A DNA stretch of 19,035 nt from a virus (lineage: Duplodnaviria; Heunggongvirae; Uroviricota; Caudoviricetes): positions 1 through 19,035 of the IMG/VR virus record IMGVR_UViG_2645727555_000005. One strand, written 5' to 3'. A model generated the notes under the pieces. It worked only from the letters and a program-made list of their open reading frames with translations, had not been told where the DNA came from and did not search any database. Below, in pieces: positions 1 to 17,946 of the stretch (the first letter of the stretch is position 1; each line of letters opens with the position of its first letter). The position numbers were made by a program, and so were the translations under genes.

Positions 1-319
1 GTTCCGTTCATATGAGCAAAAGTGGTGTTGAAGAAACATCCGTTTTGTGATGTTTTTTTAATCTTTTTGGGGTTTTAATTCCTATCGATCAAGTGTGCGG
101 GCACCCAGCAATTACGAGAAAGAATTAGCCGTGTTTTGGGCGACGTTATTACGCCAGATCATCATAAACAAGCCGAGAAAAGTGGCTTGGAAAGGTGTCA
201 CCTTGAGGCGGCATTAAACATTAAGCCGGGGCATACGCTTGGCATTATTGATGCACTATTGGTTCATAAGATGGCCAGGGCTTTATTGCCGCTGGTGGCT
301 GAAAAGCATGAGGCGGACC

Positions 320-604
320 ATGCCAACGAAAGCTGAGTTACAGGCGCGCATAGAGATTCTTGAAAAAGAGAATGCGAGTCTAAAAGGAATGCTGGCGCGG
401 GCGGAAAGGGAATTATCAGGCAAATTATTGCCAGAAGAGCTGCCACCAGCAGATATACCTGATCGAGTGTCCTGGTGGATGAAGTATTTCCGTGCACCGT
501 GGGAGGCGTTTTGGTGCTACGACCATCGCAGATGGTGTGATGAGCTTGATAGCAGTTTCCCCTATTTTGCGGAAGGGAACTCTTGCCCTGAATGTAGGAG
601 TTAA
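320..604 (+). CDS. hypothetical protein, coiled-coil N-terminus with C-terminal Cys/His cluster
   Basis: Same frame as track ORF 239..604. GAGG 6 nt upstream of ATG at 320; ATG at 308 is an alternative start. Heptad-like N-terminus (ELQARIEILEKENASLKGMLARAERE) and C-terminal CYDHRRWC...CPEC cluster. Function not recognised. Confidence 0.4.
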   Translation: MPTKAELQARIEILEKENASLKGMLARAERELSGKLLPEELPPADIPDRVSWWMKYFRAPWEAFWCYDHRRWCDELDSSFPYFAEGNSCPECRS

Positions 605-834
605 TGATGACCGGCGAGCTTTATTTTAAAATGTTTCTCGTTAGGAGTGCAGTCAAAATTTTTGGGCAATACAGGATCGAGAGGAATGCGATTAGGCATA
701 GCTAATTCCTTATTAACTGATTGGCAACGAGGTTACGCTGATCCGTTGGTGATGAATAGTAGCAAAGCGCACAAAATCATCTGCGGTGGTTGATGTACAT
801 AACGCGTTTGCACCAAAGGTGTCTCTTTAATGTA

Positions 835-854
835 TACTGTATAAATGAACAGTA
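835..854 (+). promoter_or_regulatory. LexA (SOS) box upstream of humD
   Basis: TACTGTATAAATGAACAGTA fits CTGT-N8-ACAG exactly; ends 20 bp upstream of the humD ATG and overlaps a TATACT -10-like hexamer. Confidence 0.6.
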
Positions 855-873
855 TTGTTGAGGTTAAAACGCT

Positions 874-1263
874 ATGGGCTTCCCTTCTCCTGCGGCGGAT
901 TATGTTGAAAGCAGAATTTCTCTTGATCAGCAACTAATCAGGCATCCATCAGCGACATACTTCATGCGGGCGGCAGACAGCCATCACCGTGAAGGAATAT
1001 TGCAGGGTGCTTTGCTGGTGGTCGATTCCTCACTTACTCCGGTTGATGGTTCGCTACTTGTCTGCGCTATGGAGGGTGAATATCGCATAAAGAGATACAG
1101 GAAGTATCCGCGCCAGCACCTGGAGGATTTAAGCACCGGGAAGAAAGAGGCGTTACCAGTAGATGACGATGGATGCACGGGCAGTAATGCTGTTTTTGGT
1201 GTGATCACTCATGTCATCAATGATGCCCGAAGTGGGGAGTTTGATGATTGTCCGGTTATTTAA
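874..1263 (+). CDS. humD: UmuD'-like translesion-synthesis accessory protein (HumD-like)
   Basis: 129 aa. Begins GFPSPAADYVE, the position of the processed UmuD' N-terminus, and continues with the S24-peptidase-fold core (SATYF...LLVVD...FGVITHV). P1 HumD has the same pre-truncated architecture (from memory). Confidence 0.85.
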   Translation: MGFPSPAADYVESRISLDQQLIRHPSATYFMRAADSHHREGILQGALLVVDSSLTPVDGSLLVCAMEGEYRIKRYRKYPRQHLEDLSTGKKEALPVDDDGCTGSNAVFGVITHVINDARSGEFDDCPVI

Positions 1264-1298
1264 GCTGCAAAGAGCTGGTGCTTTATGCCTGTGAAGTT

Positions 1299-1330
1299 TA
1301 TAATTGTGTACACATAACGAGTACACGAGG
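1299..1330 (+). promoter_or_regulatory. phd-doc promoter/operator
   Basis: TATAAT at 1299-1304, then palindrome GTGTACAC (1306-1313) and half-palindrome GAGTACAC (1319-1326), then GAGG RBS (1327-1330). Matches the autoregulated Phd operator arrangement. Confidence 0.6.
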
Positions 1331-1335
1331 TGTTT

Positions 1336-1557
1336 ATGCGATCCATTAACTTCCGTACCGCGCGCGGCAACCTTTCTGAAGTGCTCAACAATGTTGAAGC
1401 CGGGGAAGAGGTTGAAATCACCCGCAGAGGCCGTGAGCCAGCAGTAATTGTCAGTAAGGCTACTTTCGAAGCCTACAAAAAAGCGGCGCTGGATGCTGAA
1501 TTTGCATCCCTGTTTGACACCCTGGACTCCACCAACAAGGAACTGGTTAACCGATAA
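1336..1557 (+). CDS. phd: Phd antitoxin (prevent-host-death)
   Basis: 73 aa, [39 protein letters not shown]..., essentially the P1 Phd sequence as recalled. ATG at 1336 preferred over the track GTG at 1330 because of RBS spacing. Stop overlaps doc start (TAATG). Confidence 0.9.
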
Positions 1558-1937
1558 TGAGGCATATATCACCGGAAGAACTTATTGCGCTTCATGATGC
1601 GAATATAAACCGCTACGGCGGCCTGCCGGGAATGTCAGATCCGGGTAGGGCAGAGGCCATTATCGGGAGAGTTCAGGCCAGAGTTGCCTACGAAGAGATC
1701 ACCGACCTTTTCGAAGTCTCCGCCACCTACCTGGTGGCTACAGCGAGAGGGCATATATTCAATGATGCCAATAAGCGTACCGCGCTAAACAGTGCGCTGT
1801 TATTTCTACGCCGTAACGGGGTGCAGGTATTTGATTCACCTGAACTGGCAGACCTTACTGTAGGCGCTGCGACTGGCGAGATATCTGTATCTTCTGTCGC
1901 CGACACGTTACGTAGATTGTATGGTTCTGCGGAGTAG
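1557..1937 (+). CDS. doc: Doc toxin (Fic-fold kinase, death-on-curing)
   Basis: 126 aa with Fic-type motif HIFNDANKR; near-identical to P1 Doc as recalled; translationally coupled to phd. Confidence 0.9.
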
Positions 1938-1941
1938 ATTA

Positions 1942-2139
1942 ATGGCACGTAAATACAACAAGTTGTCCCGTGAAGCGTTAAAGATGCTTCTTGATGGCGT
2001 GAGTCGCCGCGAGGTAAAGCAATACCTGGTTGGTAAGCAAATTGGTGCCAGGACCGCTATTGCTGTGTTATGCCGTCAGGAAATGGTTGTGCTTAAACAG
2101 AGAATGCTTGGTAGCAGACAAAGTGCTTCCAGTATTTGA
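1942..2139 (+). CDS. hypothetical small basic protein (65 aa), possible DNA-binding
   Basis: ATG at 1942 with GGAG 7 nt upstream, directly after the doc stop. Basic, helix-rich sequence (LSREALKMLLDGVSRREV...). Followed by terminator hairpin. Confidence 0.45.
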   Translation: MARKYNKLSREALKMLLDGVSRREVKQYLVGKQIGARTAIAVLCRQEMVVLKQRMLGSRQSASSI

Positions 2140-2142
2140 AAA

Positions 2143-2171
2143 GAAGCCCGCCATACCAAGCGGGCTTTTTG
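2143..2171. terminator. bidirectional intrinsic terminator between convergent operons
   Basis: AGCCCGC (2145-2151) / GCGGGCT (2160-2166) stem, 8-nt loop, T5 run on the plus strand and A/T-rich run on the other. Lies between the stop at 2139 (plus) and the stop at 2172 (minus). Confidence 0.6.
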
Positions 2172-2948
2172 TTATTTCACCTCTTCTGCCGCTGTATCAT
2201 TGGACTGTTCTTCTTTGGCCCGTTCTGCAATCGCCGCACGGCATTTCGCCCTGGCTATAGCGATTGCTTCAGCTCGCACATCGTCTGGAATCGTTGACGT
2301 GATATACATATCCAGTTCTTCGGCACGGAATACTGTTTGGTCCAGATATTCGCGTAGCATCCAGGTAAATTCGAAATCACACGCGATAATCTCTGCGCTA
2401 CCTTCTGCACCATTTGGGAAATGAATAAATGCCTGTTTAGCCAAACCGATAACACGACATGCGGTTGCCAAAACAGCGACAACCAGGTTTACATTTTCAC
2501 ACGCTACGGGCTGATTAACGCCGGAGATTACTCCATTTAACTGTCGGTTATATGGAAGGTAGTTTGAGATGCGTTCTACGCGCCATGTGCCAGTCAGGCT
2601 GCCATTTTTAAAGATAATTGGTGTAACGGATAGCCCAAGCTCGCGTATAAGTCGTTGCGCTATAGCAGGATCATTAAACAGGTCTAATGCTACACATTCG
2701 AAAGACTGCGCAAGGGCAAACAGTTCTTCCAGAGAGTAGTCTTTGCCCCTGGCGGTGATGTAACGACGAACGCCGCTGTCTGCATCACTCCATATAGCTA
2801 CGCCATGCTCTTCATTCAGCTCTTCATTAAAGCCGAGATACGTCATGATAGTGCGTTCAATCGTGTCAAACGGCAGTGACATGTCGGCGTTAACAGCCAC
2901 CAGCAGGCCATTACGCAAGCGGTATTGAATTGTTTTGGTGCTTTCCAT
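2172..2948 (-). CDS. hypothetical protein (258 aa), last gene of the dre-downstream operon
   Basis: Long ORF with GAGTGA RBS-like sequence 6 nt upstream; 6-nt gap from the preceding gene; acidic Ala/Glu-rich C-terminal tail. No motif recognised. Confidence 0.7.
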   Translation of the reverse strand: MESTKTIQYRLRNGLLVAVNADMSLPFDTIERTIMTYLGFNEELNEEHGVAIWSDADSGVRRYITARGKDYSLEELFALAQSFECVALDLFNDPAIAQRLIRELGLSVTPIIFKNGSLTGTWRVERISNYLPYNRQLNGVISGVNQPVACENVNLVVAVLATACRVIGLAKQAFIHFPNGAEGSAEIIACDFEFTWMLREYLDQTVFRAEELDMYITSTIPDDVRAEAIAIARAKCRAAIAERAKEEQSNDTAAEEVK

Positions 2949-2954
2949 GTCAAA

Positions 2955-3605
2955 TCACTCCACTACAAACCAGTCACAAGCCAGTAAATCATCAACAGAC
3001 GGCAACCAAACGCTGTCCATATTTTGTGCATCTTTCAATACGAAATGGTCACCATAAGGAACCTGAATGTCGTGTAAATTGACGCTCCCAGCGAGAACTA
3101 ACCAGCAGAATTGCTTTTCGCCTTTCCACTCGCGTCGAGCTACATTTTTTCCTTCTTTCAGCCACATTAGCGCATCAGAAAAGTCGGCTGCTTCAAGGTC
3201 GATTTCCTCTTGCTGGGTAGTGGTACCACCAGCAGAAATAGTTACGCTCCCGGTAATATTAATCATCACGCCGTTGTCATCCGTAATGATGACCGTGGTT
3301 CCATTTTCGGAGGCGTCGTTAACCAGGCCATAGCATTCCTCAAATGGTTTCTCCGGGGCATAGAACAGATAACCGTTTTCATAAACGATCAGATACCCGC
3401 CAGTTTTTGGTCGGTGTTTTTGTAAAAACATTGCGTCAACACAAACTGTTGCCCCTTTTGGTTCAACGAGTTCAATGCAGCCCCAAAGTGGGGCATCAGT
3501 TACTCCGAAAATAACAACATTTTTGATTTTCGATGCACTAACGTTTTTGTGAGCTTTGTATTTGGGAAGGAACTTAAAAAGCTCTTTCGTTGCCATGTAA
3601 TTCAT
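2955..3605 (-). CDS. hypothetical protein with C-terminal DUF2829-like domain
   Basis: 216 aa. C-terminal ~75 aa (FSDALMWLKEGKNVARREW...LLACDWFVVE) matches the DUF2829 pattern (A..W.K.GK.V.R..W ... DW.hhE). AGGAAAGG RBS directly upstream. Confidence 0.7.
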   Translation of the reverse strand: MNYMATKELFKFLPKYKAHKNVSASKIKNVVIFGVTDAPLWGCIELVEPKGATVCVDAMFLQKHRPKTGGYLIVYENGYLFYAPEKPFEECYGLVNDASENGTTVIITDDNGVMINITGSVTISAGGTTTQQEEIDLEAADFSDALMWLKEGKNVARREWKGEKQFCWLVLAGSVNLHDIQVPYGDHFVLKDAQNMDSVWLPSVDDLLACDWFVVE

Positions 3606-3619
3606 AGCCTTTCCTCTGC

Positions 3620-4114
3620 TTAAAACTTTGCGTACTGAAGCGGTGTGCGCTTGATTTCAAAGTGGTCTTCCGATGTGCTACCAAAGCCACCAGTACCACG
3701 TTCCGTTTCGTTGAGTTCCTCAACCTCGACTAGTGAGACTTGTTCAACACGCTCAAAAATGCCTTGCATGACAGCCATTCCAGGCTTGAGACGAACGACT
3801 TCCCCGCCTGGATCAGTAATCAGTTTTGCCATGATTTCACCGCGATAATCAGAGTCGATAATTCCTACGCAGTTAGCCAGGCGAGTATGTTTTTTGCAGC
3901 CCAATCCGGAGCGCGGATAGAGTTTCAGACACCAGCCGGGCGGGATCTCCATAGCCAGTCCGGTGTACACCCACCAGCTTGAGGAAATTGCACCATTGCT
4001 ATCGACGCATGGTTTTATTTCAACAGCCTCAAAATCCATCGCCGCCGATCCGGAGGTGGCATAAGCTGGAAGTTTTGCTGCCGGATGTAGGCGTTTCACT
4101 TTTACGTAAATCAT
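3620..4114 (-). CDS. dut: dUTP diphosphatase (trimeric dUTPase family)
   Basis: 164 aa with all dUTPase motifs in order: YATSGSAAMD, PRSGLG, GIIDSDYRGEI, MQGIF, RGTGGFGSTS. Start overlaps upstream stop (ATGA). About 15-aa C-terminal extension beyond motif V. Confidence 0.85.
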   Translation of the reverse strand: MIYVKVKRLHPAAKLPAYATSGSAAMDFEAVEIKPCVDSNGAISSSWWVYTGLAMEIPPGWCLKLYPRSGLGCKKHTRLANCVGIIDSDYRGEIMAKLITDPGGEVVRLKPGMAVMQGIFERVEQVSLVEVEELNETERGTGGFGSTSEDHFEIKRTPLQYAKF

Positions 4115-4587
4115 TGTTTTTTAGCTCTCTGCGTGAAGGTGTAAACCCGACGTTTGATATGTGGAACGGTGGGAACAGGAAGACAGGAACTTTCAATAAC
4201 TCCTTGCTCCTCCAGCGATCGCACCGCCCGCAAGAACTGCGACGTGTCGCCGCCAAACTGGCGGGCATAGGTGCTGCCGTTATGAAGTATTTGAGCTATT
4301 ACCCGAGCTTTTGTCTGGCTGTCACGATATGCGAATAGCCGCACGGCCTCTTCTGGCGCAATCGCTAACTGATAGCCTTTCCCGGCACGGTGTCGAATGA
4401 ATCCATGCGCCAGTAGGTTTTTGAGTTCGTTACGAGTGCGAACAGTTCCGTAATCCAGGAAGTGTGGATTGATAACGACTGGCTTAAACCATTCCGTAGG
4501 TGCTTTAGCTAATAGAGTTAACAGATTCCCGGATAATTCTGGATAGGAAGATGGGTAACAATTCAGAGATGGGTAATAAGTTTTCAC
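4111..4587 (-). CDS. hypothetical protein with winged-helix-like segments (possible transcription regulator)
   Basis: 158 aa. C-terminal FLRAVRSLEEQGVIES...KRRVYTFT resembles a MarR/PadR-type recognition helix plus wing; a second similar segment (LKNLLAHGFIRHRAGKGYQL) lies upstream. ATGA overlap with both neighbours. Confidence 0.6.
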   Translation of the reverse strand: MKTYYPSLNCYPSSYPELSGNLLTLLAKAPTEWFKPVVINPHFLDYGTVRTRNELKNLLAHGFIRHRAGKGYQLAIAPEEAVRLFAYRDSQTKARVIAQILHNGSTYARQFGGDTSQFLRAVRSLEEQGVIESSCLPVPTVPHIKRRVYTFTQRAKKQ

Positions 4588-4928
4588 CGACGCCCCCTTG
4601 CAGGATATCGACCTGCATTAGTATCCGGTGCAATAAAGCCGGTAGTGGGGCGAGTGAAAGCAAGATTAATCTTCTCGACCATAGTGCGATAATTTTCCTG
4701 ATAGTGGGCCAGGAGTTTTTCGGCGGCAATGATGGTTACTTTCCGGACGTAGCTTTCTGCTTCCGCCAGATTTCGCCAGTTTTTTTCGAGGGTAAACACA
4801 GGGACGGCCTCAAGCCCGGTCATGATGCCGAACACAACGACAGCATGACTGTTCTTAACACCAGCGGCGAAGGTTACGGTGTAACCATCCACCTTGAAGC
4901 GTCTTGATTCCGTGATTTGACTCTGCAA
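4584..4928 (-). CDS. hypothetical protein (114 aa), first gene of the dre-downstream operon
   Basis: TTG start at 4928 preceded by a strong AGGAGG 5 nt upstream; ATGA overlap with the next gene. Confidence 0.55.
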   Translation of the reverse strand: MQSQITESRRFKVDGYTVTFAAGVKNSHAVVVFGIMTGLEAVPVFTLEKNWRNLAEAESYVRKVTIIAAEKLLAHYQENYRTMVEKINLAFTRPTTGFIAPDTNAGRYPARGRR

Positions 4929-5001
4929 AGCACCCTCCTAAATAGGCGAGGGTACTTTACAGCAAAGGCGTTAATCTAAAAAGATGTGTTAGAAATTTAA
5001 T

Positions 5002-6030
5002 TTAAGAATCCATCAGGCGGCTATTAGCCCCCACAGACACGCCGCCACGGCGAAGATACCGCATAAGTGTTTCCGGTTTCTTCCAGGTTCCTTCCTGCAT
5101 GATCTCCACCATAGACACCTGCTTTTCAGCCATATCAATAGCGGCCCCGACGCGTGCACTATGCCCGGTCCACGTCCGGTATCTTCCTTTGTTTGGCGTA
5201 GCATCTCTTTTATTCAGCAACACCCAGGCGTCGCTGAATATTTTCTCCATTGCAGGTGCAGTAAGGGGCGTTGTCGTGAGCCTGGCCTTATTGCTACGGT
5301 GTATCGGCGGGAACAGCACTGCGTCAGGATGTTCGCGAAGCCCGGAAACATCCAGCCAGTCATTCAGCACAGCGGTAGTGCGACGGGAAAGCACCTTATC
5401 AAGCCCGGCGGCGGTCGTTATTGTCTTCGTGTGTGAAATATGTAGCGTGACAGTGTCACCTGTTTGGTCCAGATCTCCTACACGAATACGCGATATTTCC
5501 GACATACGCATCAGCGTATTGTATGCAACAAAGAGAAAAGCCCGGTTGCGCAGGTCCACCAGCCGTTCTGACCTGGACAGCAGGACGTCGAGCAGTTTCA
5601 GATCGTCCCACCGCAGCGGTATAGCCTGGCCTGTTCGTTCGCCTTTTTCAGTTGCCGCTTCGCGCCGGATGCGCCGCATAGCCAGAGAAACACTTTTATC
5701 ATCCGAAAGTGGTGGAAGGCCACAATGCGAAAGCAGCATGTTCAGCATGGCGTAGTGCTTATCAATGGTGGTCGAAGCCAGATCGGCATCATGCAGCTGA
5801 AGAAAATACTCGCGGGCCATTTCTGGTGAGATCGGAAACCAGGCAAGCTGGCGAGCGTGACACCAGCGCGCCCAGGAATGAAACACCAACCGGAGGTCGC
5901 GCAGAGTATTCGGCGCATAAGCCCCCTGGTCATTCATGAACCGCATAAAGTTTTCTGCGGCTTCCTGGTACTCTTTGCCAATGTTGCGCAGAAAACCACC
6001 GGAACTGCCAGAGATAATTAATTCACTCAT
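5002..6030 (-). CDS. dre: Cre-family tyrosine site-specific recombinase (Dre-like)
   Basis: 342 aa, collinear with P1 Cre. Catalytic positions conserved: Arg in AYNTLMRMSEISRIRVGD (Cre R173 region), H-x-x-R (GHSARVGAA), Trp (EGTW), Tyr nucleophile (MRYLRRG). Arm-binding regions diverge from Cre, consistent with altered site specificity. Confidence 0.92.
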   Translation of the reverse strand: MSELIISGSSGGFLRNIGKEYQEAAENFMRFMNDQGAYAPNTLRDLRLVFHSWARWCHARQLAWFPISPEMAREYFLQLHDADLASTTIDKHYAMLNMLLSHCGLPPLSDDKSVSLAMRRIRREAATEKGERTGQAIPLRWDDLKLLDVLLSRSERLVDLRNRAFLFVAYNTLMRMSEISRIRVGDLDQTGDTVTLHISHTKTITTAAGLDKVLSRRTTAVLNDWLDVSGLREHPDAVLFPPIHRSNKARLTTTPLTAPAMEKIFSDAWVLLNKRDATPNKGRYRTWTGHSARVGAAIDMAEKQVSMVEIMQEGTWKKPETLMRYLRRGGVSVGANSRLMDS

Positions 6031-6182
6031 GAAACTATTTCACCTCTATATACAGATGACGCTACGCGAAAAATATAAAAATGACAGGGTAGCTATAAGT
6101 TAATTTTCAAAATACAAGCCTTTGATTCGAGGCACGTATTTTCAGTGATGTCAACACTGTTCATCTACACATGATTATAGCC

Positions 6183-6214
6183 TAACTTTAAATAATGCCA
6201 ATTATTTAAAGTTA
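6183..6214. other. rox: rox-type recombination target site
   Basis: TAACTTTAAATAAT-GCCA-ATTATTTAAAGTTA: two perfect 14-bp inverted arms around an asymmetric 4-bp spacer. Outer arm bases resemble loxP (ATAACTT...AAGTTAT). Lies 152 bp upstream of the recombinase start. Matches the 32-bp rox site of Dre as I recall it. Confidence 0.85.
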
Positions 6215-6370
6215 TAAAATGGCGATTTTTTTTAATCCATCACAGATTGATTCTGACCAGTAACACGTTGCCTTCATGGTCTTTAATTTGCGAAGTGTGG
6301 TTTATACAGTTGGTTTTCTAAAATTGATGACAAAAAATCACAGTTCGATCCTTTACTCACTCTGTTATTC

Positions 6371-6384
6371 GACATAAATTTGTC
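6371..6384. promoter_or_regulatory. dyad element GACA-N6-TGTC in promoter region of the 345-aa gene
   Basis: GACATAAATTTGTC with AAATTT core, 40 bp upstream of the ATG at 6425 and overlapping a TTGTCA -35-like hexamer. Operator candidate only. Confidence 0.3.
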
Positions 6385-6424
6385 ATAGTAATTTTATGTT
6401 AGAAAACTAAATCGAGTAGGAATA

Positions 6425-7462
6425 ATGAGTAAGAAGTCGATCGAGAAAGAGTACAAACGGTTCCTGCAAACCGCTGAACGGTGGAAAGAGCTGGTGGTCG
6501 CAAACTCTGTTTTCCATGATACCAGTTATGCTGGCGAGGAATTCCGCCATGTTGCATTAACGCATGACCAAAACATATTAGAAGAAGCTGAAAAATGTCT
6601 TGCTGAATGGAAAGCCTTCGTTGACATGTGTCGCGATGCCGACGGCAAAGCGTCGAACATTGTTGAGTCTGTATATTCTCCGATCCCATTCATCATTGAG
6701 GACACCAATCAAAGCACGCATGTTGTTGTGCAAAGCGCTACAACAACACGTACATTTACACGTGAACAATTGCTCAAAAAATACGACAAAATCATAAAGA
6801 AAAGCCTGAAAAATAGGGTTTTTTCTCAAATCGTAGGTGCTCTTGAAGAAGAACAGCGCTTCTTTGAAGCTGAGCCTGAAGGCGAGATCTACCGGGCGCG
6901 TAAAGAGGCATATACAGATGTTGTGCTGACAACAAACATCGAAGGCAGCAATGCCCTTTCTCGCTTTAGAGTTGGCGCACATGGCGCATTGGTTTTCGCA
7001 AGACTACCGAAGACAACGATCCCCGTTGTCAATAATGTTGGTGAACGCCGGAGCATTACAATTTATTCTGGCGTCGAATCGGTACCTTGCAGCCTTCTCG
7101 GCGATTTTAACTTATATCGTGTTCGTGACCTGGAAAAACACCAGCCAAGCTACGTTGCGAAGTCGTACATCTTAAGGAACATCGATATTCGCAATGAAAG
7201 CCTTAAGCAGAAATCCGCTAAGATGCTGGAGGATGCCGATCCGGCTATTCGCCATATCATTGAGCGTAAGATACGTACATCACGTGAAGCAATGGCAAGG
7301 CTGGATAAAATGGATCTGGAATTGTTAGACGTAATGATGGCCTCTGGAGACGACCTGACCGGCATTAAACTAAATGAAGCTCGTAAAAAATACGGCAAAG
7401 CAATCGAAGAACGTTACGGATACACATTCCCCCAAACGCAGTACGCCGCGAAGCTCTGGTAA
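6425..7462 (+). CDS. hypothetical protein (345 aa) in the immunity-region slot
   Basis: ATG with AGGA RBS 6 nt upstream; own promoter region and own terminator. Lys/Asn/Ile-rich, lower GC than neighbours. No HTH or catalytic motif recognised. Convergent with pacB, divergent from dre across rox, which is the P1 c1 position by synteny. Confidence 0.8.
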   Translation: MSKKSIEKEYKRFLQTAERWKELVVANSVFHDTSYAGEEFRHVALTHDQNILEEAEKCLAEWKAFVDMCRDADGKASNIVESVYSPIPFIIEDTNQSTHVVVQSATTTRTFTREQLLKKYDKIIKKSLKNRVFSQIVGALEEEQRFFEAEPEGEIYRARKEAYTDVVLTTNIEGSNALSRFRVGAHGALVFARLPKTTIPVVNNVGERRSITIYSGVESVPCSLLGDFNLYRVRDLEKHQPSYVAKSYILRNIDIRNESLKQKSAKMLEDADPAIRHIIERKIRTSREAMARLDKMDLELLDVMMASGDDLTGIKLNEARKKYGKAIEERYGYTFPQTQYAAKLW

Positions 7463-7471
7463 TCACAACTG

Positions 7472-7497
7472 GCCCCGCATCGCGGGGCTTTATATAT
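7472..7497 (+). terminator. intrinsic terminator after the 345-aa gene
   Basis: GCCCCGC (7472-7478) / GCGGGGC (7482-7488) stem with 3-nt loop, followed by TTTATATAT. Overlaps the pacB stop codon on the opposite strand. Confidence 0.6.
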
Positions 7498-8998
7498 CCA
7501 GATCTGGCATTTCGATATCCGCCAGAACCTGATCTCGGAAAGTTGCCATTTCGGCACCAATATCTTCATTAGCAGGCACATAGTCCACCAGCATAGTGAA
7601 GCAGTAGGTATCCCATCGGTCAGGCGATTTGATGTTTAGCTTTTGCCGCATGTGCTCTTTGCGCATCATCGCCATTTTCCCTTCCTCATTCAGTAAAAAG
7701 GGGATTTTTGACGCTTGCTCTGCCGTTTTAGGGTCACTGTCTATCCGCATACGCCCTGACTTTATGGCATCACGCGCCATAATATTTGCGTAGGCACGCT
7801 GATTAACAAATCGCTCCCTGTCTTTGTTCGCAAACATGGGTTTTCCCCACCGAATACGTACCGGGTTCGCACCACGACGCACCAACTGCGCACACGCATC
7901 AGAACCAAAACCATCGGCATCAACCGCGATTGTTATATTCGGGTATTTTTCCGGCGTACATTCGTTATATATGAAGTCAGCAAAGGCCAATGGGTCCATA
8001 GTGCCAGGCATCTCCATTACCTTAAAGTTAACAACGCGCCGCTTATCCCTGTGACCAGATACCTTGCAGATGTTGAGGACCGACTTATCTCGCCCATTAC
8101 CAACGTCAGCCGTTGCCACCCATCCCCAGTTTTTCTCCAACAACACCTTGCGGCGAGCTGCGCGATCGCATTCATCACGACCAAGCAAATAGCCGTTAAT
8201 TTCTCGTGGGAACTGACCAAGCACCTTGACCATGTACTCAATAGAATCGCGCCCGCCATATTCCAGAAGCTTCTGCTTGATGAATTGTGGTGTGACGAAC
8301 GGTGATTCTTCCGAGTTAAGAACAATTGCTGTCCAGATCCCTTTCGGGTTGTCTGGGGTTTTTGCTTGAGAATGGTGCGAATCGTAGAAATAACCACTTG
8401 GCCTTGTTGGCTGGGATAGCATCAACATCCGGTTATCTTCTTCAGTAAGAGCACCGGTCATTACGCCGATCGCCTTATCAGATATACCAGATGCTTCATC
8501 CAGAATTAGAAGCAAATGTGCCGCATGTTCCCCCGCCAGCGCTTCTTCGTTGCCGAGTCGATAACCTTTGCAGAGAACTTCCCAAATCCCCTTACGGGAG
8601 CGCTCATAAAACATGGTGTCAGAGAGGACAAAATAGGTCTGCAACCACCCATGACGCTTAACTGCATTCGCCCAATACTGTTTAACGTATTTGAATACGC
8701 CTGTTTTTACCTGGCCTATCTTGTTAGCAACAATGATGACACGGGCATCGGGGAACAGGATCATAAAAATCAACAGCAACATCGCGGTAAGGGACGACTT
8801 CCCCGTTCCGTGTCCGGACGTGACGGTCGTCCTACTCCCCGTTTCCTGCACTGACTGAATGATCTGCTGCTGCTGGTGGGAGGGGAACATCCCAAAAATA
8901 TCGACAACAGCCTGGGTAAAGTTGTAGCGGTATTTGATTACCATATCGCGCCAGCGTGGATCGCTGGTGACGCATTTAATCTTGCGCCCGCCAGCCAT
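7490..8998 (-). CDS. pacB: terminase large subunit (PacB-like)
   Basis: 502 aa with Walker A GHGTGKS near the N-terminus and an acidic nuclease-type C-terminal half. Start overlaps pacA stop by 1 nt. P1-type order lpa-pacA-pacB. Confidence 0.9.
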   Translation of the reverse strand: MAGGRKIKCVTSDPRWRDMVIKYRYNFTQAVVDIFGMFPSHQQQQIIQSVQETGSRTTVTSGHGTGKSSLTAMLLLIFMILFPDARVIIVANKIGQVKTGVFKYVKQYWANAVKRHGWLQTYFVLSDTMFYERSRKGIWEVLCKGYRLGNEEALAGEHAAHLLLILDEASGISDKAIGVMTGALTEEDNRMLMLSQPTRPSGYFYDSHHSQAKTPDNPKGIWTAIVLNSEESPFVTPQFIKQKLLEYGGRDSIEYMVKVLGQFPREINGYLLGRDECDRAARRKVLLEKNWGWVATADVGNGRDKSVLNICKVSGHRDKRRVVNFKVMEMPGTMDPLAFADFIYNECTPEKYPNITIAVDADGFGSDACAQLVRRGANPVRIRWGKPMFANKDRERFVNQRAYANIMARDAIKSGRMRIDSDPKTAEQASKIPFLLNEEGKMAMMRKEHMRQKLNIKSPDRWDTYCFTMLVDYVPANEDIGAEMATFRDQVLADIEMPDLDI

Positions 8999-10362
8999 TA
9001 ATCATCCTCCGGCGGTTCTATCGCGATATCATCATCTCCGGCGTCATACCCTGCATCAGATGCATCATAATCACCGTAAATTTCAGCCGTTGCCGAAGGG
9101 TCAATATCCAGCTCTTCGTCGTTGGCCTCGAATTCTCCAGCTTTACGCTCGCCATTGCGGTCGTAATCTCCGCACCCCAATTCTTCAACAATGGTTGCCA
9201 CATCCGCCCGGCGCTCTGCCAGCCATTGCGGATGGTTAGCCTGAAGCGTTGCAAACTCCCTTGCCTCTTTGTCCAGCTGTTCATCATCAACATCATTGAC
9301 GTCAGAAACAGGTGGTTCGAGAAGAGTGATAGCTTTCGCCGCGCGCGCCGCGAGGATAGCCGGGACGCTGACCCCCTGGCGCTCGATGTATTCAGCAACA
9401 CCGATATCATCCAGTTCCTCGCGCTCACGCATACGTATAGCGGCGGCGATAACTCTGGCAGCGCGTGCGTCAGCGCCAATGCGATATTCAATCTCTTTGC
9501 CACGCTGTTCGGCCTGTAGGCGTGCTAATTCGAGTTTTTCTCTGGCCTCAGCCTCTTTGAATGCTTGCTGGCGAGCGCTCTGACGAAGCTTTTCATCCCC
9601 CTGTCGCAGCTTTTGTTCGGACTGATATATAGCTGCCAACCTACTGATAAAATCATTCATGTAGTAGGCCGCGTCACTGATTAGACCGAGAAGGCGCTGC
9701 CCAGGGTGCATTCCTTCTGGCTCTTTATCGCCCAAGGCGTCTATTTCCGCCTGTAGACGTTCGGCCTCCTGATCAACAATGCTTTGATACTGAAGTGCGC
9801 GCTCTTGCGCCATTTGAATTGCTAACCGCAGGTGTTCTTCTGCGCCGTTCTTCATCATATCGCGAGCCACATTCGTAGTGGGCAATGTGGCACGCTGCAC
9901 AGCACCGCCAGGGATCATTGCTGAAGATCCCTCAATTTTTGGGGCGCTTTTATCTTCTTCGGGGATCATTTTCGCCATTTTTTCGCGCAATGGTCTCCTG
10001 ACAGATTCTTTTATCTCATTGTTATTATTTGCATTATTTTCATGATCCGAAGTTTTCTTTCTCGGCATACTTCGGAAAGAACCTGCGCCCTGCGAATTGT
10101 CAATTTCTGTAAATTTTGTTTTTTCTGCACCCTCTTCCAGCTTTTTTGTTGCTCTTCCCGCCCGTTTTTTTTCAGGTGATTTGGTGCTTTTTTTTGTTGT
10201 CTTTACCTGCGACCGCACCTCATTTTTTTTCATATTGAGATGCTTTCTGGCTGTATTGAAGCTAAGGCCATGCTCCTCACAGTATTCCTTTACAGTGATC
10301 CCTTTTTCTTCACGCAACGCTATAAAGCGGGCGCGGTGCTCCTCCCAATTAACCAGACTCAT
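8998..10362 (-). CDS. pacA: terminase small / pac-recognition subunit (PacA-like)
   Basis: 454 aa. N-terminal HTH-like segment (WEEHRARFIALREEKGITVKEYCEEHGLSFNTARKHL) resembling the P1 PacA N-terminus; Lys-rich linker; central coiled coil; acidic C-terminus. ATGA overlap with lpa. Confidence 0.8.
   Translation of the reverse strand: MSLVNWEEHRARFIALREEKGITVKEYCEEHGLSFNTARKHLNMKKNEVRSQVKTTKKSTKSPEKKRAGRATKKLEEGAEKTKFTEIDNSQGAGSFRSMPRKKTSDHENNANNNNEIKESVRRPLREKMAKMIPEEDKSAPKIEGSSAMIPGGAVQRATLPTTNVARDMMKNGAEEHLRLAIQMAQERALQYQSIVDQEAERLQAEIDALGDKEPEGMHPGQRLLGLISDAAYYMNDFISRLAAIYQSEQKLRQGDEKLRQSARQQAFKEAEAREKLELARLQAEQRGKEIEYRIGADARAARVIAAAIRMREREELDDIGVAEYIERQGVSVPAILAARAAKAITLLEPPVSDVNDVDDEQLDKEAREFATLQANHPQWLAERRADVATIVEELGCGDYDRNGERKAGEFEANDEELDIDPSATAEIYGDYDASDAGYDAGDDDIAIEPPEDD
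9900..10050. other. candidate pac cleavage region (GATC hexamer cluster inside pacA)
   Basis: TGATCC-type hexamers on opposite strands at 9913-9916, 9964-9967 and 10044-10047, plus GATC at 9926, TGATCA at 9770 and TGATCC at 10297, flanking an A/T-rich core (10000-10040). P1 pac is a cluster of Dam-methylatable TGATCA/G hexamers inside pacA. Confidence 0.3.
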
Positions 10363-10751
10363 AAAGCAACACCACGCTTTTTAACGGCGGCATTCCACAG
10401 CTTATTCGCCATGTCCACCAGCTCTCGTTGCTCTTTTCGCGCCTGTTCGACTGATTTCCTGCTACAGTTTTTAACCAGTAAGCTACCGTATTCAGGCGTG
10501 CGCCCGCGCACCTTGAACTGATATCCGTTCAGACCATGTAGCCAGTATTTTCGTGGATACACACGATCATCCAGCTCACAGATTGCCCTGCTTGAACGAA
10601 CAAAATGACGAATGATGTTAGTTACACTTACTCGTGAAACATGGAGATGAGGGTATTTTTCTTTGGCGAGAGTGGTAATTTCAGTGACTGTCAGATAGCA
10701 GTCAGCCCTGATCATGATATCCGCAATTTCTGCGCTGCTGATTTGTTCCAT
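10359..10751 (-). CDS. lpa: late-promoter-activator-like protein (Lpa position)
   Basis: 130-aa ORF immediately upstream of and overlapping pacA, as lpa is in P1. TATAAT-containing promoter region upstream. Assignment is by synteny only. Confidence 0.5.
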   Translation of the reverse strand: MEQISSAEIADIMIRADCYLTVTEITTLAKEKYPHLHVSRVSVTNIIRHFVRSSRAICELDDRVYPRKYWLHGLNGYQFKVRGRTPEYGSLLVKNCSRKSVEQARKEQRELVDMANKLWNAAVKKRGVAL

Positions 10752-10859
10752 TAATCCCCCGGGCAGGAAATGACCGAGGGGATGATAATGAGAATGTTAA
10801 AACTGTATAGACTGGTAAAAAGATGATTATATTAGAAAATTAATATTAAATACCTAACA

Positions 10860-11252
10860 CTACCAGCGAGACAAACGAACAACATGTTTCACTTTTGCGA
10901 TCCACTTTCCGCGATAACTATTGATTACGGCCTGTGCCAGCTTCAAATTGGCTTCAAAATCAGCCTTACTACCATCAGACTCCACCAGCATTCCTCCATC
11001 TATTTCTGGTAAACATAGATAATCCTGCTCAACCTGCAGCGGCATTGATGGCTCTCTGAATGGCGTTACTTGCTCTGCTTTCCAGCGAAATCTAACCCTC
11101 ATCCCCCTGGTGGTCATTACTAGATAGCCTGTTATAGTGCTTTTATGGCCCACATCAGTACGCGTGGCATTGCATGACACGATCTTACAGTTAGCGATAG
11201 ACCACTCCATATTGGTGGCCTGTTGAGTGCTTAATTTGGTAGTCCCGTACAT
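10860..11252 (-). CDS. hypothetical protein (130 aa)
   Basis: ORF whose start overlaps the stop of the upstream DUF2829-like gene by 1 nt; no motif recognised. Confidence 0.55.
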   Translation of the reverse strand: MYGTTKLSTQQATNMEWSIANCKIVSCNATRTDVGHKSTITGYLVMTTRGMRVRFRWKAEQVTPFREPSMPLQVEQDYLCLPEIDGGMLVESDGSKADFEANLKLAQAVINSYRGKWIAKVKHVVRLSRW

Positions 11253-11827
11253 CAGAAAGCCTCCCAGTCAGTCGCGATAATATCCACACCAGTTGCAAAC
11301 CAGTCTGTCTGCGCCTGTAAATCCCCATTCATCATTACCAAGCGAGGCATCACCATCACATCGCACCCTTCCACAATATCGAATGCCTCTTCCGGTAAGA
11401 ATTCGAAGAGCTTTTCTTTGCTGCCAATGCTGCCACGGAACATCGATATATAGCTCCCTTTAGGCCATGATGTCCGCCGGGCATCAAGCCCTTTCATCAT
11501 CCAGTAAAAAGCCGAGGAAAAAGGGATATTCTTTTTGCCAATGATTACATTATTCGCTTCTGTGTACTTCAGGAACTTAACTAACCTTACCATTGACTCG
11601 GATAACGCAACGTATGGCTCATGATTGATTGCTGACACGCTTACACCGTGCAATCCAACGCTTACCACTGTCATATCGCCGCTCTGTGCGGTTTCGATAT
11701 TGACGCCTTTGCGAACTAATGAGGCGTAAAGTTCCTCTCGCTTTTGGGTCCAGCGTTCCCGCTTCCCTATGAAGTCACTCAAAATGAGATCTTCTTCTGC
11801 ATGTGCGTTATCGTTCGCCATTAACAT
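11252..11827 (-). CDS. hypothetical protein with C-terminal DUF2829-like domain
   Basis: 191 aa. C-terminal FSSAFYWMMKGLDARRTSWPKGSYI...DIIATDWEAF fits the same DUF2829 pattern as the 216-aa protein at 2955-3605. Near-palindrome CATCTCTCGG...CCGATAGAGATG at 11861-11890 just upstream. Confidence 0.65.
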   Translation of the reverse strand: MLMANDNAHAEEDLILSDFIGKRERWTQKREELYASLVRKGVNIETAQSGDMTVVSVGLHGVSVSAINHEPYVALSESMVRLVKFLKYTEANNVIIGKKNIPFSSAFYWMMKGLDARRTSWPKGSYISMFRGSIGSKEKLFEFLPEEAFDIVEGCDVMVMPRLVMMNGDLQAQTDWFATGVDIIATDWEAF

Positions 11828-12282
11828 AACGTCTCCTTTTTACACGCGCGACCATCTCTCGGTTAAACCGATAGAGATGTCGAAACTTCGTATTAATTAA
11901 GGGTTACAGCCTGAGCGGCTATATGATGAATTGAAAGGAGTTGTGGCGGTGGTGCCTCCACCTGCCAGGTCAGCCACGCCCGGCGACGACACTTATCAGA
12001 ACCTCAATGAATGAAAATGGCTTCGTCACGAGCGCATAGCCGCAATTACCACAACGGAAACGGCGCTCGCGTTAATTAAACGCCTTTTCCTGTTGTGCGC
12101 CGTACTCTTCCGGCTGTCACACCGAATCGCCAGGATGGTGAGTCCTCGGTCCGACGATATGAACGGGGCTTGCACATTCCGGCTACCTGGTTTGTTGCCT
12201 GAGCTAGGGGCAAGGTTCCCCCCTTTTAACGTCACCAGACCGCTAACGACGCATGTGCCAGACGCCGTGTTACAACCAAATG

Positions 12283-12358
12283 TGGTGGCCCCTACCGGAC
12301 TTGAACCGGTGACCGTGCGATTATGAGTCGCCAGCTCTAACCACTGAGCTAAAGGGCC
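12283..12358 (-). tRNA. tRNA with CAT anticodon, most like tRNA-Ile2 (lysidine, AUA decoder); elongator Met not excluded
   Basis: 76 nt incl. encoded CCA: GGCCCTT TA GCTC AGTGGTTA GAGC T GGCGA CTCATAA TCGCA CGGTC ACCGG TTCAAGT CCGGT AGGGGCC A CCA. G1-C72 pair, so not initiator. Closely resembles E. coli ileX as recalled. Confidence 0.85.
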
Positions 12359-12495
12359 AGATTACTGTTAATTCCGCTTACGCTTTTTGCCAGAACCGCG
12401 TAAGGCTTTTGCCGCTTGCTCGACCCCATATGCAACCACCAGCAAAAATAAAAATGTCCAACCAGGGTTCTTATCGGCAAACGCCCAAAAATTCA

Positions 12496-12819
12496 TCACT
12501 TACAGCCACCTTGCATTTCCTTGGATAATTCATTGATTTTAGTGCTCAATAAGTAATCAAAATAAAGATAAAACACAAAAGTAACGATAGTGCTTAAAGT
12601 GTCTGAAATTGCGTATTTCAGCTCAGGAAGCATGACAAAGCAGACAAATAGCGGAAGAAATAACTGCACTATGCACAGGCTCTTCTTCCACAACCATCTA
12701 TATCTGAAGTCTGACAACAAAAACTCCATTGCTTGAAACTTTATTAGATTGCGGTGCCTGGTGCCTCCAGGTGACGTTAACCAGTTAACAATTAACGTCG
12801 GGATGTTTGACTTAACCAC
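12496..12819 (-). CDS. possible small hydrophobic membrane protein (start uncertain, GTG 12819 or ATG 12729)
   Basis: Track ORF; the portion from the internal Met (MEFLLSDF...) is strongly hydrophobic. No convincing RBS. Located between tRNA genes. Confidence 0.3.
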   Translation of the reverse strand: MVKSNIPTLIVNWLTSPGGTRHRNLIKFQAMEFLLSDFRYRWLWKKSLCIVQLFLPLFVCFVMLPELKYAISDTLSTIVTFVFYLYFDYLLSTKINELSKEMQGGCK

Positions 12820-12979
12820 TAAGGAGGATTGTTTTAACTGTTCCGCGTGCGCTTAGCCGCATTCACCGCAATGGTAAGAGCACTTGGCTGGCTGGGCGGC
12901 GATGACGCCTGTACGCATTTGGTGATCCGGTTCTGCTTCCGGCATTCGCTTAATTAGCCAAATACTCTTAACGTTGCGA

Positions 12980-13066
12980 TGGCGGAGAGTAATGGAATCG
13001 AACCATCATCGCTTGCGCAATGGGACGGTTTTCAAGACCGCTTGAGCACCATGCTCCCTACTCTCC
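12980..13066 (-). tRNA. type-II (long variable arm) tRNA-like gene, anticodon TGA (Ser)
   Basis: 87 nt incl. CCA. 7-bp acceptor GGAGAGT/ACTCTCC, anticodon arm GCGGT CTTGAAA ACCGT, T-arm GATGG TTCGATT CCATT, discriminator G. D-arm is atypical (GAGC/GCTC stem, 5-nt loop, 3-nt linker), so needs a tRNA scan. Confidence 0.55.
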
Positions 13067-13261
13067 AGTGATTGTGGTGGTCGGTGCTGATCTCCGACAC
13101 AGGGTTGTAGCAAGCCCCGCAAAGCGCGCACTACTGTAGTTGCGGCACATCAGCCTGTGCATTCACCACAATGTTGAGAACACTGGTTGTCACGCGGCAA
13201 CGCAACATTTATTCATAGATTGGGATATGACCCCGTTACGCCAATGTTCTCAATATTATGT

Positions 13262-13337
13262 TGGTGCCGGTTAACGGACTTGAACCGCTGGCCATTCGCT
13301 TACAAAGCGACTGCTCTACCAACTGAGCTAAACCGGC
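13262..13337 (-). tRNA. tRNA-Thr (anticodon TGT)
   Basis: 76 nt incl. CCA: GCCGGTT TA GCTC AGTTGGTA GAGC A GTCGC TTTGTAA GCGAA TGGCC AGCGG TTCAAGT CCGTT AACCGGC A CCA. Canonical cloverleaf. Confidence 0.9.
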
Positions 13338-13341
13338 AATT

Positions 13342-13428
13342 TGGTGGGGAGTGATGGAGTCGAACCACCCGAGTCGCAATGACAGTAGATTTACAGTCTA
13401 CCCCGCTACCCCTACGGACTAACTCCCC
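13342..13428 (-). tRNA. type-II tRNA-Tyr (anticodon GTA)
   Basis: 87 nt incl. CCA. Acceptor GGGGAGT/ACTCCCC, anticodon arm GTAGA CTGTAAA TCTAC (same loop as E. coli tRNA-Tyr), long variable arm, T-arm GGTGG TTCGACT CCATC. D-arm spacing off by 1 nt from canonical. Confidence 0.75.
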
Positions 13429-13433
13429 TAAAT

Positions 13434-13510
13434 TGGCGATGGTGGGCGGATTCGAACCACCGACCGACAGCTTAGAAGGCTGCTGCTCTATCCTACTGAG
13501 CTACACCATC
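13434..13510 (-). tRNA. tRNA-Arg (anticodon TCT, AGA decoder)
   Basis: 77 nt incl. CCA: GATGGTG TA GCTC AGTAGGATA GAGC A GCAGC CTTCTAA GCTGT CGGTC GGTGG TTCGAAT CCGCC CACCATC G CCA. Canonical cloverleaf. Confidence 0.85.
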
Positions 13511-13964
13511 ACTTGCCGGGTACGTCTCCGGCGAGGGCTTCCACCTCCGTATGCTTTTCGGCGCACCGCGCCCTGGCTGCAATTCGGTAACAGGGGATGC
13601 ACAACCCTGGCTTCCAGCGTGATTAGCGCCTTCAGCATGACGGGATATACCCGTTACAAGACATTATCCCAGAAAGCCATTAACCAATGGCTGTTACGCG
13701 GGAGGGACGTAACAGGTAAGGGCGCTGACCAGAAAGACCTGACCCTTCTCATTCATCTGGTTAATCACACCAGCGCCCTTGCCTGTTATGCCTCCCCGTT
13801 CCCTAATACACAGACGGGGACACTCTGCGGTCGATTTTTTGACGGGGGACGACTCATACCCCGTGGCGTCTGGCTTCTTAGGCCGCTACCATCATCAGAT
13901 CATCGTTTGCATTTACTTTAATGGTCGGTTTCTAAACCGCCGCAAAGTCGCTAACCATGACGAA

Positions 13965-13994
13965 AACCCTAAAAAAGCCCACCCGAAGATGGGC
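13965..13994 (-). terminator. candidate intrinsic terminator inside the ORF-free segment (minus-strand sense)
   Basis: On the minus strand, hairpin GCCCA-TCTTCGGG-TGGGC followed by TTTTTTAGGGTTTTCG. Short 5-bp stem, so moderate confidence. Confidence 0.4.
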
Positions 13995-14013
13995 AAATAC
14001 GCTACATCTCACA

Positions 14014-14092
14014 CAAGAAAGAAGCCGACTGCCTGAGCTGGATTCACTTTCAAATGCCCGCTGAAAGGGATCACAAGTCGGCTTCTTTCTTG
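14014..14092. repeat. 17-bp perfect inverted repeat flanking a 45-bp spacer
   Basis: CAAGAAAGAAGCCGACT (14014-14030) and its exact reverse complement AGTCGGCTTCTTTCTTG (14076-14092). Confidence 0.85.
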
Positions 14093-14308
14093 ATGCGGCA
14101 CTCTCTCCGCCCGTCACCGCTCTGTCTCGGTTGTCGCGTTTGCCACGCCAGCCGTAACGAGGTTTAAAGTCTTTGCACGTTTCCATCACTCGACTGCCGT
14201 CTGTGGCTGTTCGTTGCAGCGGGGGTGCCTCCCCCTGGGGATATCCCCGGCCTTACCCCATTCTTTCAAGACACAATGCAAGGCCACATCCGCATAGGTG
14301 CATTACTG

Positions 14309-14373
14309 CAACATTAAGGAGACTCAGGGCAAAAGGTAACCGCCACAAAAATCCCTATGCCTCCTTAATGTTG
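14309..14373. repeat. 13-bp perfect inverted repeat flanking a 39-bp spacer
   Basis: CAACATTAAGGAG (14309-14321) and CTCCTTAATGTTG (14361-14373). Nearby GC palindromes GGGGGTGCCTCCCCC (14221-14235) and GGGGATATCCCC (14237-14248). Confidence 0.85.
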
Positions 14374-14684
14374 AAGATGTGCATTGATGATTAGATGCAG
14401 CATGTACCGTTACTCTCTGCCGGACCATCATCAATGAACACCTTAAAAAGACCTTCCGTGGCTCAACATGTATTGTCGTTTACTCCGCAAAGTGCTCTCT
14501 CTGAAACCACTTTCCGCACTAAACCTACTGAACTTTGGCCTGCACGGTGCCAAAGCGTGCTCTTGCGTTACTATACTTTTCTAACACTTTAATTTGTTAA
14601 ATGCTGGTGGGTGAACAATAACCAATAAGTGACTATCAAGCCCAGCAAGCGAAACGTGGGTACCGCCCACCAGCAAGGAAAATT

Positions 14685-15953
14685 CTATGTTAAGTTACCT
14701 TCACAATCAATACATTCGAATTGTGATTTTAGATTTCTAACACATTGTTTCCCGTAAAGATCTTCTACACCCCCATTCTTCTTATCCCATTCGTTCGCCC
14801 ATACCCGGCAAGCGTCAATGATTTCCTGACGACGATCTCCTTGCATGAACGGAATGCTTTCATGGAAACAGCTTGGAATGCAGGCCACACTGAATACAGT
14901 ATCAAACTCCGTCTGCTTGATTGCCTCCAGCGTCTCCGGACGCATTTTTAATTCATCGATTGGCGCATCCTTAGAGTCCATAATCCGGCGATATAAGCGC
15001 GGAAAATCCGTCTCCAGGTACGCCATAATTTTATCTGCGAGACATTCGTCTATGTCGGTATTCCAGTCCTTTTCGAAGCCCGGCAGGCGATAGTAAAGCG
15101 GCGTTCCCCATACCGATGGGATCACATCCATCGTTAACAGGCGATTGGTTCTGATTTGTTGATGGTAATTAGCCGTCAGCAGTGCTTCGCCACGCTGCCC
15201 AGTTTCCGCAACCAGGCCGTGCGGATACTCATGGATGTAGGCAATGGCATCCCTTCCGTCATACATAAGTGGAAATGTCTCTGGTCTTTGTCCCATGCCA
15301 CAAGCACGGTTCAGATCGTGACCAAGCTGTGAGCACTCTCGCTTTAATGTTTCGATAATGCTCTGCGCTGTAGCCAACTTTTTACGCAGTGTGACGCCTT
15401 CGCCTTGATAATCAATGCATTGCTGATTGAGCTTGGTTAAACGCTCTTTTAGTTCCCGGCGCTCTCTTTTCAGCGTGCGGTTATCCTTCTCCGCAACATC
15501 CAGCCGCTTTGTCAGGCTGGGCGGATAGTCTTTTTTGTAACGGTTCAAATCAGCTTCGGCAGATTTACGCAGTGTATTTGCCTGTTCAAGACGCGCTTCC
15601 AGATTGCCGATCTCATTACGCATATTCGCGGCAAATTGATTAACTGCATCGCCCAGGCTTTCAACTGTCGCTGATACGCCTGTGACTTGTGAAAAACGGA
15701 TCAAGCCATCATTAACGGCTTGTTGGTATTCCTCAAACTGATCCACCAGCTTATTGTAATCAACTGCCCCATCATCAAGCAGCTTGTTGATTTCCGCCAC
15801 CAGGTTATCTGTAGTGGCAATGACACTCTCGTGCAGTCGCTTTGACAGGTCATCACCCGGATTCCGTTTCTGTATAAGAGCGATTTGTGTGCGCAGCGTT
15901 TCAATTGCTGTCGAGATAATTTCCAGATTAGAAGTATCAGTGTGTTGACTCAT
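14685..15953 (-). CDS. hypothetical protein, N-terminal coiled coil plus C-terminal Cys-rich globular domain
   Basis: Track ORF 14685..15968 (GTG start); ATG at 15953 (MSQHTDT...) is more likely. About 200 aa of heptad-rich sequence, then a domain with clustered Cys/His (CIPSCFHE...CRVWANEW...CVRN...CIDCEGN). Own A/T-rich promoter region; terminators on both sides. Confidence 0.75.
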   Translation of the reverse strand: MSQHTDTSNLEIISTAIETLRTQIALIQKRNPGDDLSKRLHESVIATTDNLVAEINKLLDDGAVDYNKLVDQFEEYQQAVNDGLIRFSQVTGVSATVESLGDAVNQFAANMRNEIGNLEARLEQANTLRKSAEADLNRYKKDYPPSLTKRLDVAEKDNRTLKRERRELKERLTKLNQQCIDYQGEGVTLRKKLATAQSIIETLKRECSQLGHDLNRACGMGQRPETFPLMYDGRDAIAYIHEYPHGLVAETGQRGEALLTANYHQQIRTNRLLTMDVIPSVWGTPLYYRLPGFEKDWNTDIDECLADKIMAYLETDFPRLYRRIMDSKDAPIDELKMRPETLEAIKQTEFDTVFSVACIPSCFHESIPFMQGDRRQEIIDACRVWANEWDKKNGGVEDLYGKQCVRNLKSQFECIDCEGNLT

Positions 15954-16032
15954 TGCTGTTCCCGTCACTTTGTTAAATTAGTTTTCTAATATATTTTATT
16001 AGTTTGATGACGGTATCGGAAGATGCAATAAA

Positions 16033-16060
16033 CAAAAAACCCGCTAATTGGCGGGTTTTT
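16033..16060 (-). terminator. intrinsic terminator (bidirectional hairpin)
   Basis: AAAAAACCCGC TAATTG GCGGGTTTTT: 6-bp GC stem with A-run and T-run flanks, immediately downstream (minus sense) of the stop at 16059. Confidence 0.7.
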
Positions 16061-16385: not shown

Positions 16386-16567
16386 TCATCAGCGCTTGCA
16401 CTTTCCGGGGTTATGTGAACCTTATCGCCAGTAACAATATTGCGAGCTTCAAAACTTCCATTGATACGTTTCGAGATCTCAATACATAGAGCCTGCTGCC
16501 ATGAGCGACGACGAGCGATAGCATTAGTTCCTGCAGGGATAAGTTCTGCCACGTTAAGTAAACGCAA
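16367..16567 (-). CDS. hypothetical small protein (66 aa)
   Basis: TTG start with GGAG 8 nt upstream, 14 nt after the VRR-NUC stop; no motif recognised. Confidence 0.4.
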   Translation of the reverse strand: MRLLNVAELIPAGTNAIARRRSWQQALCIEISKRINGSFEARNIVTGDKVHITPESASADDWEFVH

Positions 16568-16581
16568 AACGATTTCTCCGT

Positions 16582-17473: not shown

Positions 17474-17475
17474 GG

Positions 17476-17910: not shown

Positions 17911-17946
17911 TCAAATTCGGCCCCGGTTGGGGCCGCTCCTTATCTG

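Follow-up and report, generated by a model that had tools for sequence, protein, structure and literature searches.

The probable Dre/rox recombination system of phage D6 on a D6-like phage-plasmid

Phage D6 encodes a system of site-specific recombination, Dre/rox, reportedly first described by Sauer and McDermott in 2004. Known since that year, and a standard tool of genome engineering, the pair carries little weight as a discovery when it is met again. In E. coli, D6 Dre carries out both excision and integration at rox, and is inactive on loxP and vox (PMC3553980, PMC4957104, PMC4777119); in particular, Dre/rox and the Cre/loxP pair of phage P1 are heterospecific (PMC3553980). Cre/loxP shares with the locus described here the fold family, the catalytic residues, a minimal inverted repeat placed beside the recombinase gene and the immC/pac neighbourhood. 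Panto/pox, Vika/vox, Nigri/nox and VCre/VloxP also combine a Cre-like recombinase with a lox-like site beside its gene, but their proteins and sites are different ones, while the locus analyzed here has the D6 pair itself. Panto, from Pantoea sp. aB, shows 52% identity to Dre and is able to recombine rox (PMC4957104).

The window, i.e. the whole stretch of 19,035 nucleotides that was analyzed, contains a locus which may be identified, with a probability of about 95%, as the D6 system of site-specific recombination, Dre/rox, residing on a D6-like phage-plasmid. The original prediction had placed a Dre-like recombinase and a rox-type site at 5002-6214, had matched them to the D6 pair and had judged them probably not novel. 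All this proved right: the interval spans exactly the dre gene and rox, the pair is the one described from D6, and the observation is correct but ordinary, Dre/rox being already known. With respect to D6 (AY753669; MF356679), 341 of the 342 residues of Dre are the same, as are all 32 positions of rox, the 152-bp spacing and the complete C1 sequence (100%); the neighbours also coincide, with dut, orf3 and orf2 on one side and c1, pacB, pacA and lpa on the other. The differences consist of the I251L change, of 28 nucleotide differences in dre, of 10 substitutions in the intergenic region and of the segment with tRNA genes and tciA/tciB; the window segment is, in addition, bracketed by IS91-family ends. 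The features of the locus and of its surroundings are collected in Table 1.

Table 1. Position of the described features within the window.
Feature	Position	Strand	Remarks
dut, orf3, orf2	3620..4928	-	downstream of dre, same strand; collinear with AY753669 and MF356679 orf115-117
dre, Cre-like tyrosine recombinase, 342 aa	5002..6030	-	stop codon included, at 5002-5004
likely ribosome-binding site GAGGTG	6041..6046	-	10 nt upstream of dre ATG; read from sequence
predicted sigma-70 promoter toward dre	6174..6201	-	-35 TTGGCA 6201..6196, 16-nt spacer, -10 TATAAT 6179..6174
rox	6183..6214	.	left arm 6183-6196, asymmetric core GCCA 6197-6200, right arm 6201-6214
c1, prophage repressor	6425..7462	+	100% identical to D6 C1; annotated in AY753669, MF356679; next to rox, in divergent orientation
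pacB, pacA (terminase subunits), lpa (late promoter activator)	7490..10751	-	collinear D6 annotation; 98% DNA identity

The recombinase aligns without gaps to D6 Dre (AAV84949), I251L being the sole change, and is 100% identical to the corresponding protein of plasmid pVP441 (WP_054192291.1). The nucleotide differences from D6 dre hit 27 codons: because 26 of the 27 changes are synonymous, the gene is, as judged from codon comparison, under purifying selection. When positions 4900..6400 were compared by megablast to a phage collection, phage D6 was the only match (97% identity); the D6 features lying beneath it are annotated as "dre: tyrosine recombinase" and "region of crossover (rox) site for Dre recombinase". 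The Pfam domain PF00589 (Phage_integrase) is recognized at residues 157-327, with a score of 62.6 bits against a cut-off of 27.1; PF02899, taken by itself, falls just under its cut-off (21.6 vs 22.3 bits). In a PDB search, nothing but Cre and Cre derivatives matched (E = 5e-69, residues 22-341), and the alignment to the Cre structure chains indicates that the two-domain architecture of Cre, N-terminal DNA-binding domain included, is present.

Retention of the Cre catalytic residues, part of the same prediction, is borne out by the alignment: R173, E176, K201, H289, R292, W315 and Y324 of Cre are aligned to R175, E178, K202, H290, R293, W316 and Y325 of Dre, and all seven are identical. Comparison with the two proteins by which the prediction could be checked thus gives 341/342 identical residues for Dre and about 40% for Cre (40.5% global identity to the P1 protein). 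The Cre/loxP system of P1, considered as a candidate for the same pair, is ruled out by the latter figure and by the window, where no match to loxP is found within 3 mismatches. The residues at positions relevant to rox specificity are of the Dre type: R44, P259 and K263, corresponding to Cre positions 43, 259 and 263. In Cre, the changes K43R, R259P and G263K gave activity on rox (PMC4957104). The GAGGTG hexamer upstream of dre, kept across the aligned loci, is likely its ribosome-binding site.

The site, TAACTTTAAATAATGCCAATTATTTAAAGTTA, is present once in the window. It is a perfect inverted repeat, where two 14-nt arms, 100% complementary, flank a 4-nt spacer; it lies between dre and c1, 152 bp from the start codon of the former and 210 bp from that of the latter, an arrangement shared with D6 and pVP441. 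Database comparison of the 32-mer, also proposed as a check, finds it equal, at 32 of 32 positions, to the rox annotated in AY753669 (as a misc_recomb feature) and in MF356679; the same 32-bp sequence is printed in PMC4777119. The 394-bp intergenic region between dre and c1 is 99% identical to that of D6, and none of its 10 substitutions falls within rox. A second rox was searched for, allowing up to 3 mismatches: no other match is found in the window, and none in 200 shuffles. The 14-nt half-site, searched over the whole window with up to 2 mismatches, matches its own two arms only.

The 14-4-14 organization of rox, as opposed to the 13-8-13 organization of loxP, had also been predicted. As a description of the symmetry of the palindromes the statement is valid; it does not extend to the crossover, for which the published data favour a length close to that of loxP. 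In fact, compatibility is only mildly affected by mutations in the central 4 bp of rox, but is lost when the first base of each arm is mutated, and the crossover region was concluded by the authors to be probably about as long as in loxP (PMC4777119). Elsewhere, rox is handled as a site with an 8-position spacer (PMC4957104). In the loxP register, rox may be written as TAACTTTAAATA-ATGCCAAT-TATTTAAAGTTA, i.e. 12-8-12, and the 13th arm position varies among rox loci; of the 12 arm positions shared in this register with loxP of P1, 3 differ (read from the sequence; PMC4957104). The two loci differ in layout too: rox and dre are separated by 152 bp, without a cra gene between them, while for lox in P1 the distance is 435 bp.

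Twenty IMG/VR contigs contain the exact rox 32-mer. In all those whose fetched sequence extends as far as the dre homologue, rox is 152 nt away from it; the encoded proteins are 93.9-100% identical to Dre, and a c1 gene adjoins. The I251L change co-occurs with exact rox in pVP441 and in one IMG/VR contig. In plasmids where dre DNA is only 79-87% identical (89-94% for Dre), rox is still conserved at 32 of 32 positions, and divergence begins at the first base outside the site, on both sides. As rox is invariant while both flanks and dre diverge, these comparisons support the 32 bp as the selected unit.

Natural variants of rox are also found in IMG/VR, at 150-153 nt from the recombinase start codon (L056, L058, L057, L061, L063 and L064). 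Described on the recombinase-sense strand, they include a single arm change, A to G, beside a Dre 89% identical; a core changed from TGGC to TGGA, with the first arm base also altered, again beside a Dre 89% identical; and a core changed from TGGC to TAGC, where identity of the recombinase is 70%. In L063 and L064, whose recombinases are 55-56% identical, a rox-like 34-bp site, ATAACTTTATATAATGTCAGTTATATAAAGTTAT, with one arm difference, is located at the same distance from the gene. These comparative data, i.e. an invariant and sharply bordered 32-bp unit together with natural variant sites, may be of use to engineers of rox variants.

The c1 genes found beside exact rox are of two or more types; their identity to the c1 of the window is about 100% or about 79-82%, and in one case 90% (loci L006, L012, L013, L014, L016, L019 and L023, compared to positions 6425-7462). 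Since differing c1 types adjoin the same exact rox, the immunity type varies, on this sequence comparison, independently of Dre/rox.

Positions 86..18942 of the window run collinearly with both ends of the circular D6 record; the alignment blocks are mostly 84-98% identical, with one block of 113 nt, in the tRNA cluster, at 80%. The genes follow each other in the order humD, phd, doc, pdcA, isaA-like, DUF2829, dut, orf3, orf2, dre and rox, and then c1, pacB, pacA, lpa, two ORFs, tRNAs, pmgS, pmgR, pmgM, ulx and the 3' end of darB; the order pacB-pacA-lpa is the same as in D6 and P1. In PLSDB, 88 E. coli and Salmonella plasmids, about 90 kb in size, match the window over 80% or more of its length, and a complete plasmid, pVP441 (NZ_CP121358), is 100% identical over 5002..6214. 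The region is found in 124 of the 5,426 complete E. coli genomes (about 2%); the occurrence of Dre/rox in E. coli genome sequences had already been noted by Karimova et al. (PMC4957104). Contrary to what was originally predicted, Dre/rox by itself does not fix the element type, because close relatives, with near-identical rox and 89-90% identical Dre, are carried by an IncY plasmid and an IncFIB/IncN plasmid. What fixes it, as far as gene order and identity can tell, is the 18.9-kb synteny with D6. As an anchor, Dre/rox marks the window as part of a D6-like phage-plasmid, whose replicon, partition genes and full set of virion genes would fall beyond the window.

At both extremities, positions 1..89 and 18943..19035 are not D6-like; they correspond, in the same orientation, to the two ends of an IS91-family element, which is labelled "IS91-like element ISEc37 family" in the annotation of pF8704-2_3. 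The left junction, ...TTCCTATCGAT/CAAG, falls within a pmgU-like gene; at the right junction, the IS starts exactly where darB of D6 goes on with GAAC. Both CAAG and GAAC are target tetranucleotides of IS91. The 30-mers across the junctions are not found in the genome, viral and metagenome contigs searched, and among the PLSDB plasmids and complete RefSeq E. coli genomes there is none that reads across either junction. In its entirety, the window probably corresponds to one short-read contig ending in repeated IS copies, and the simplest reading is that of two simple IS91-family insertions, disrupting darB and pmgU. Because of the location of these ends inside the pmgU-like and darB genes, the host element may no longer be an infectious phage; if so, only a role in plasmid maintenance would apply to Dre/rox.

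By analogy with Cre, each rox arm would bind one Dre protomer, and two rox sites and four protomers would join in a synapse. Tyr325 would make the 3'-phosphotyrosyl link, and strand exchange would proceed in two steps, via a Holliday junction, without any accessory protein or cofactors; the direction of rox would be set by its asymmetric core. Recombination of rox is published for D6 Dre, from which the window protein differs only by I251L, and may be expected of the latter too. As for the natural role, Cre/lox of P1 offers two models for the action of Dre at a single rox: it might circularise the terminally redundant phage DNA after infection, or it might resolve plasmid multimers to monomers, leading to a faithful partition of the low-copy prophage. 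On this analogy, cyclization of infecting DNA and dimer resolution, the role put forward in the original prediction, would be equally likely.

Multimer resolution is said to have been connected with the stable inheritance of the P1 plasmid by Austin, Ziese and Sternberg in 1981. The infecting P1 genome is cyclized by Cre-lox (PMC4330346), and in the D6-like pYU39_89 the recombinase and its site are listed, by homology, as a multimer-resolution function (PMC6799933). A P1-like geometry of pac and rox, suited to cyclization, is not supported, because pacA lacks the P1-type cluster of TGATCA/G pac hexamers; 13 such hexamers, unclustered, are present in the window, versus 22 expected. A P1-type C1 operator, ATTGCTCTAATAAATTT, has no match in the window within 3 mismatches.

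It is very improbable that the recombinase is an integrase, and the 32-mer an attP-like site for insertion into the chromosome. Dre does catalyse integration between rox sites, besides excision (PMC3553980), and 3 of the 126 places where the region is found in E. coli are chromosomal. The other 123, however, are on plasmids of about 90 kb; rox, moreover, is minimal, symmetric and lox-type, with no extra half-sites nearby, and a search of 185,579 representative genomes of bacteria and archaea returns no copy of the exact 32-mer, no chromosomal partner site being seen. The IS91-family ends, which interrupt the pmgU-like and darB genes bordering the D6-like segment, might be seen as an indication of a decaying remnant, i.e. 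an IS-broken prophage in which dre/rox is no longer functional. This too can hardly be credited: the dre ORF is intact, with its changed codons synonymous in all but one case, rox carries no change, and over this region the complete plasmid pVP441 is 100% identical. The Dre/rox system of a D6-like phage-plasmid is the preferred identification of the locus.

To this identification a further reading may be added, which complements it: rox may also be an operator, its core providing the -35 hexamer of the dre promoter, so that bound Dre would repress its own synthesis. The odds are somewhat against it. The predicted -35 hexamer consists of the rox core plus one base from each arm, and the -10 hexamer is located 3 nt outside rox; with 11 of 12 consensus matches, this is the best sigma-70-like site of the whole window, where equally good sites would be expected 0.33 times in 19 kb and 0.034 times in a 394-nt intergenic region with this composition. 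The position of the -10 hexamer (TATAAT or TATGAT) is fixed in every locus examined, down to the 70% relative L061, despite differences in the adjacent bases. In the 55-56% relatives, a different promoter, also with 11 of 12 matches, overlaps the 34-bp rox-like site in another register, with its -10 hexamer inside the site. In P1, where the annotated promoter P4cre is located 14 nt upstream of lox, transcription reads through lox toward cre; in the window, in contrast, the predicted dre promoter overlaps rox.

Against an operator function, the predicted promoter is a match to the consensus, the 89% relative L057 carries TTGGAG, a weakened hexamer, at the -35 position, and no report of an overlap between promoter and rox was found in the literature searched, which covered papers later than the original 2004 description of Dre. 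That rox combines the functions of recombination site and operator, with Dre occupancy actually shutting off dre transcription, is a tentative proposal, rather unlikely on the whole. As the overlap recurs, in another register, in relatives only 55% identical, an overlap between site and promoter is suggested as a general autoregulatory design of this branch of Cre-like systems. Should the overlap prove real, rox cassettes may be active as promoters in bacterial hosts.

Some variable features of the window were also observed. Five tRNA genes, Met(cat), Ser(tga), Thr(tgt), Tyr(gta) and Arg(tct), are found at 12283-13510 on the minus strand, where D6 has Ser, Thr and Asn: tRNA cargo thus differs, by predicted gene content, between D6-like elements. 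An Rfam scan of the window detects tRNAs only. Beside them, a stretch of about 250 nt (12498-12750) matches neither D6 nor pVP441, and replaces tciB/tciA of D6 (about 620 bp) and an SPFH-domain gene of pVP441 (about 1.1 kb); it looks like a variable cargo spot adjoining the tRNA cluster. On the other side of the locus, a DUF2829 ORF (2955-3605, minus strand) encodes 216 aa, while its D6 counterpart, orf114, annotated as resembling the C-terminal half of a protein of phage SJ46, has only 146; the alignment to D6 is interrupted within this ORF, at 3307-3544. Finally, the phd/doc toxin-antitoxin pair (1330-1937) is about 97% identical to those of P1 and P7, versus about 94% to that of D6, a similarity which points to a mosaic exchange with P1-type plasmids.
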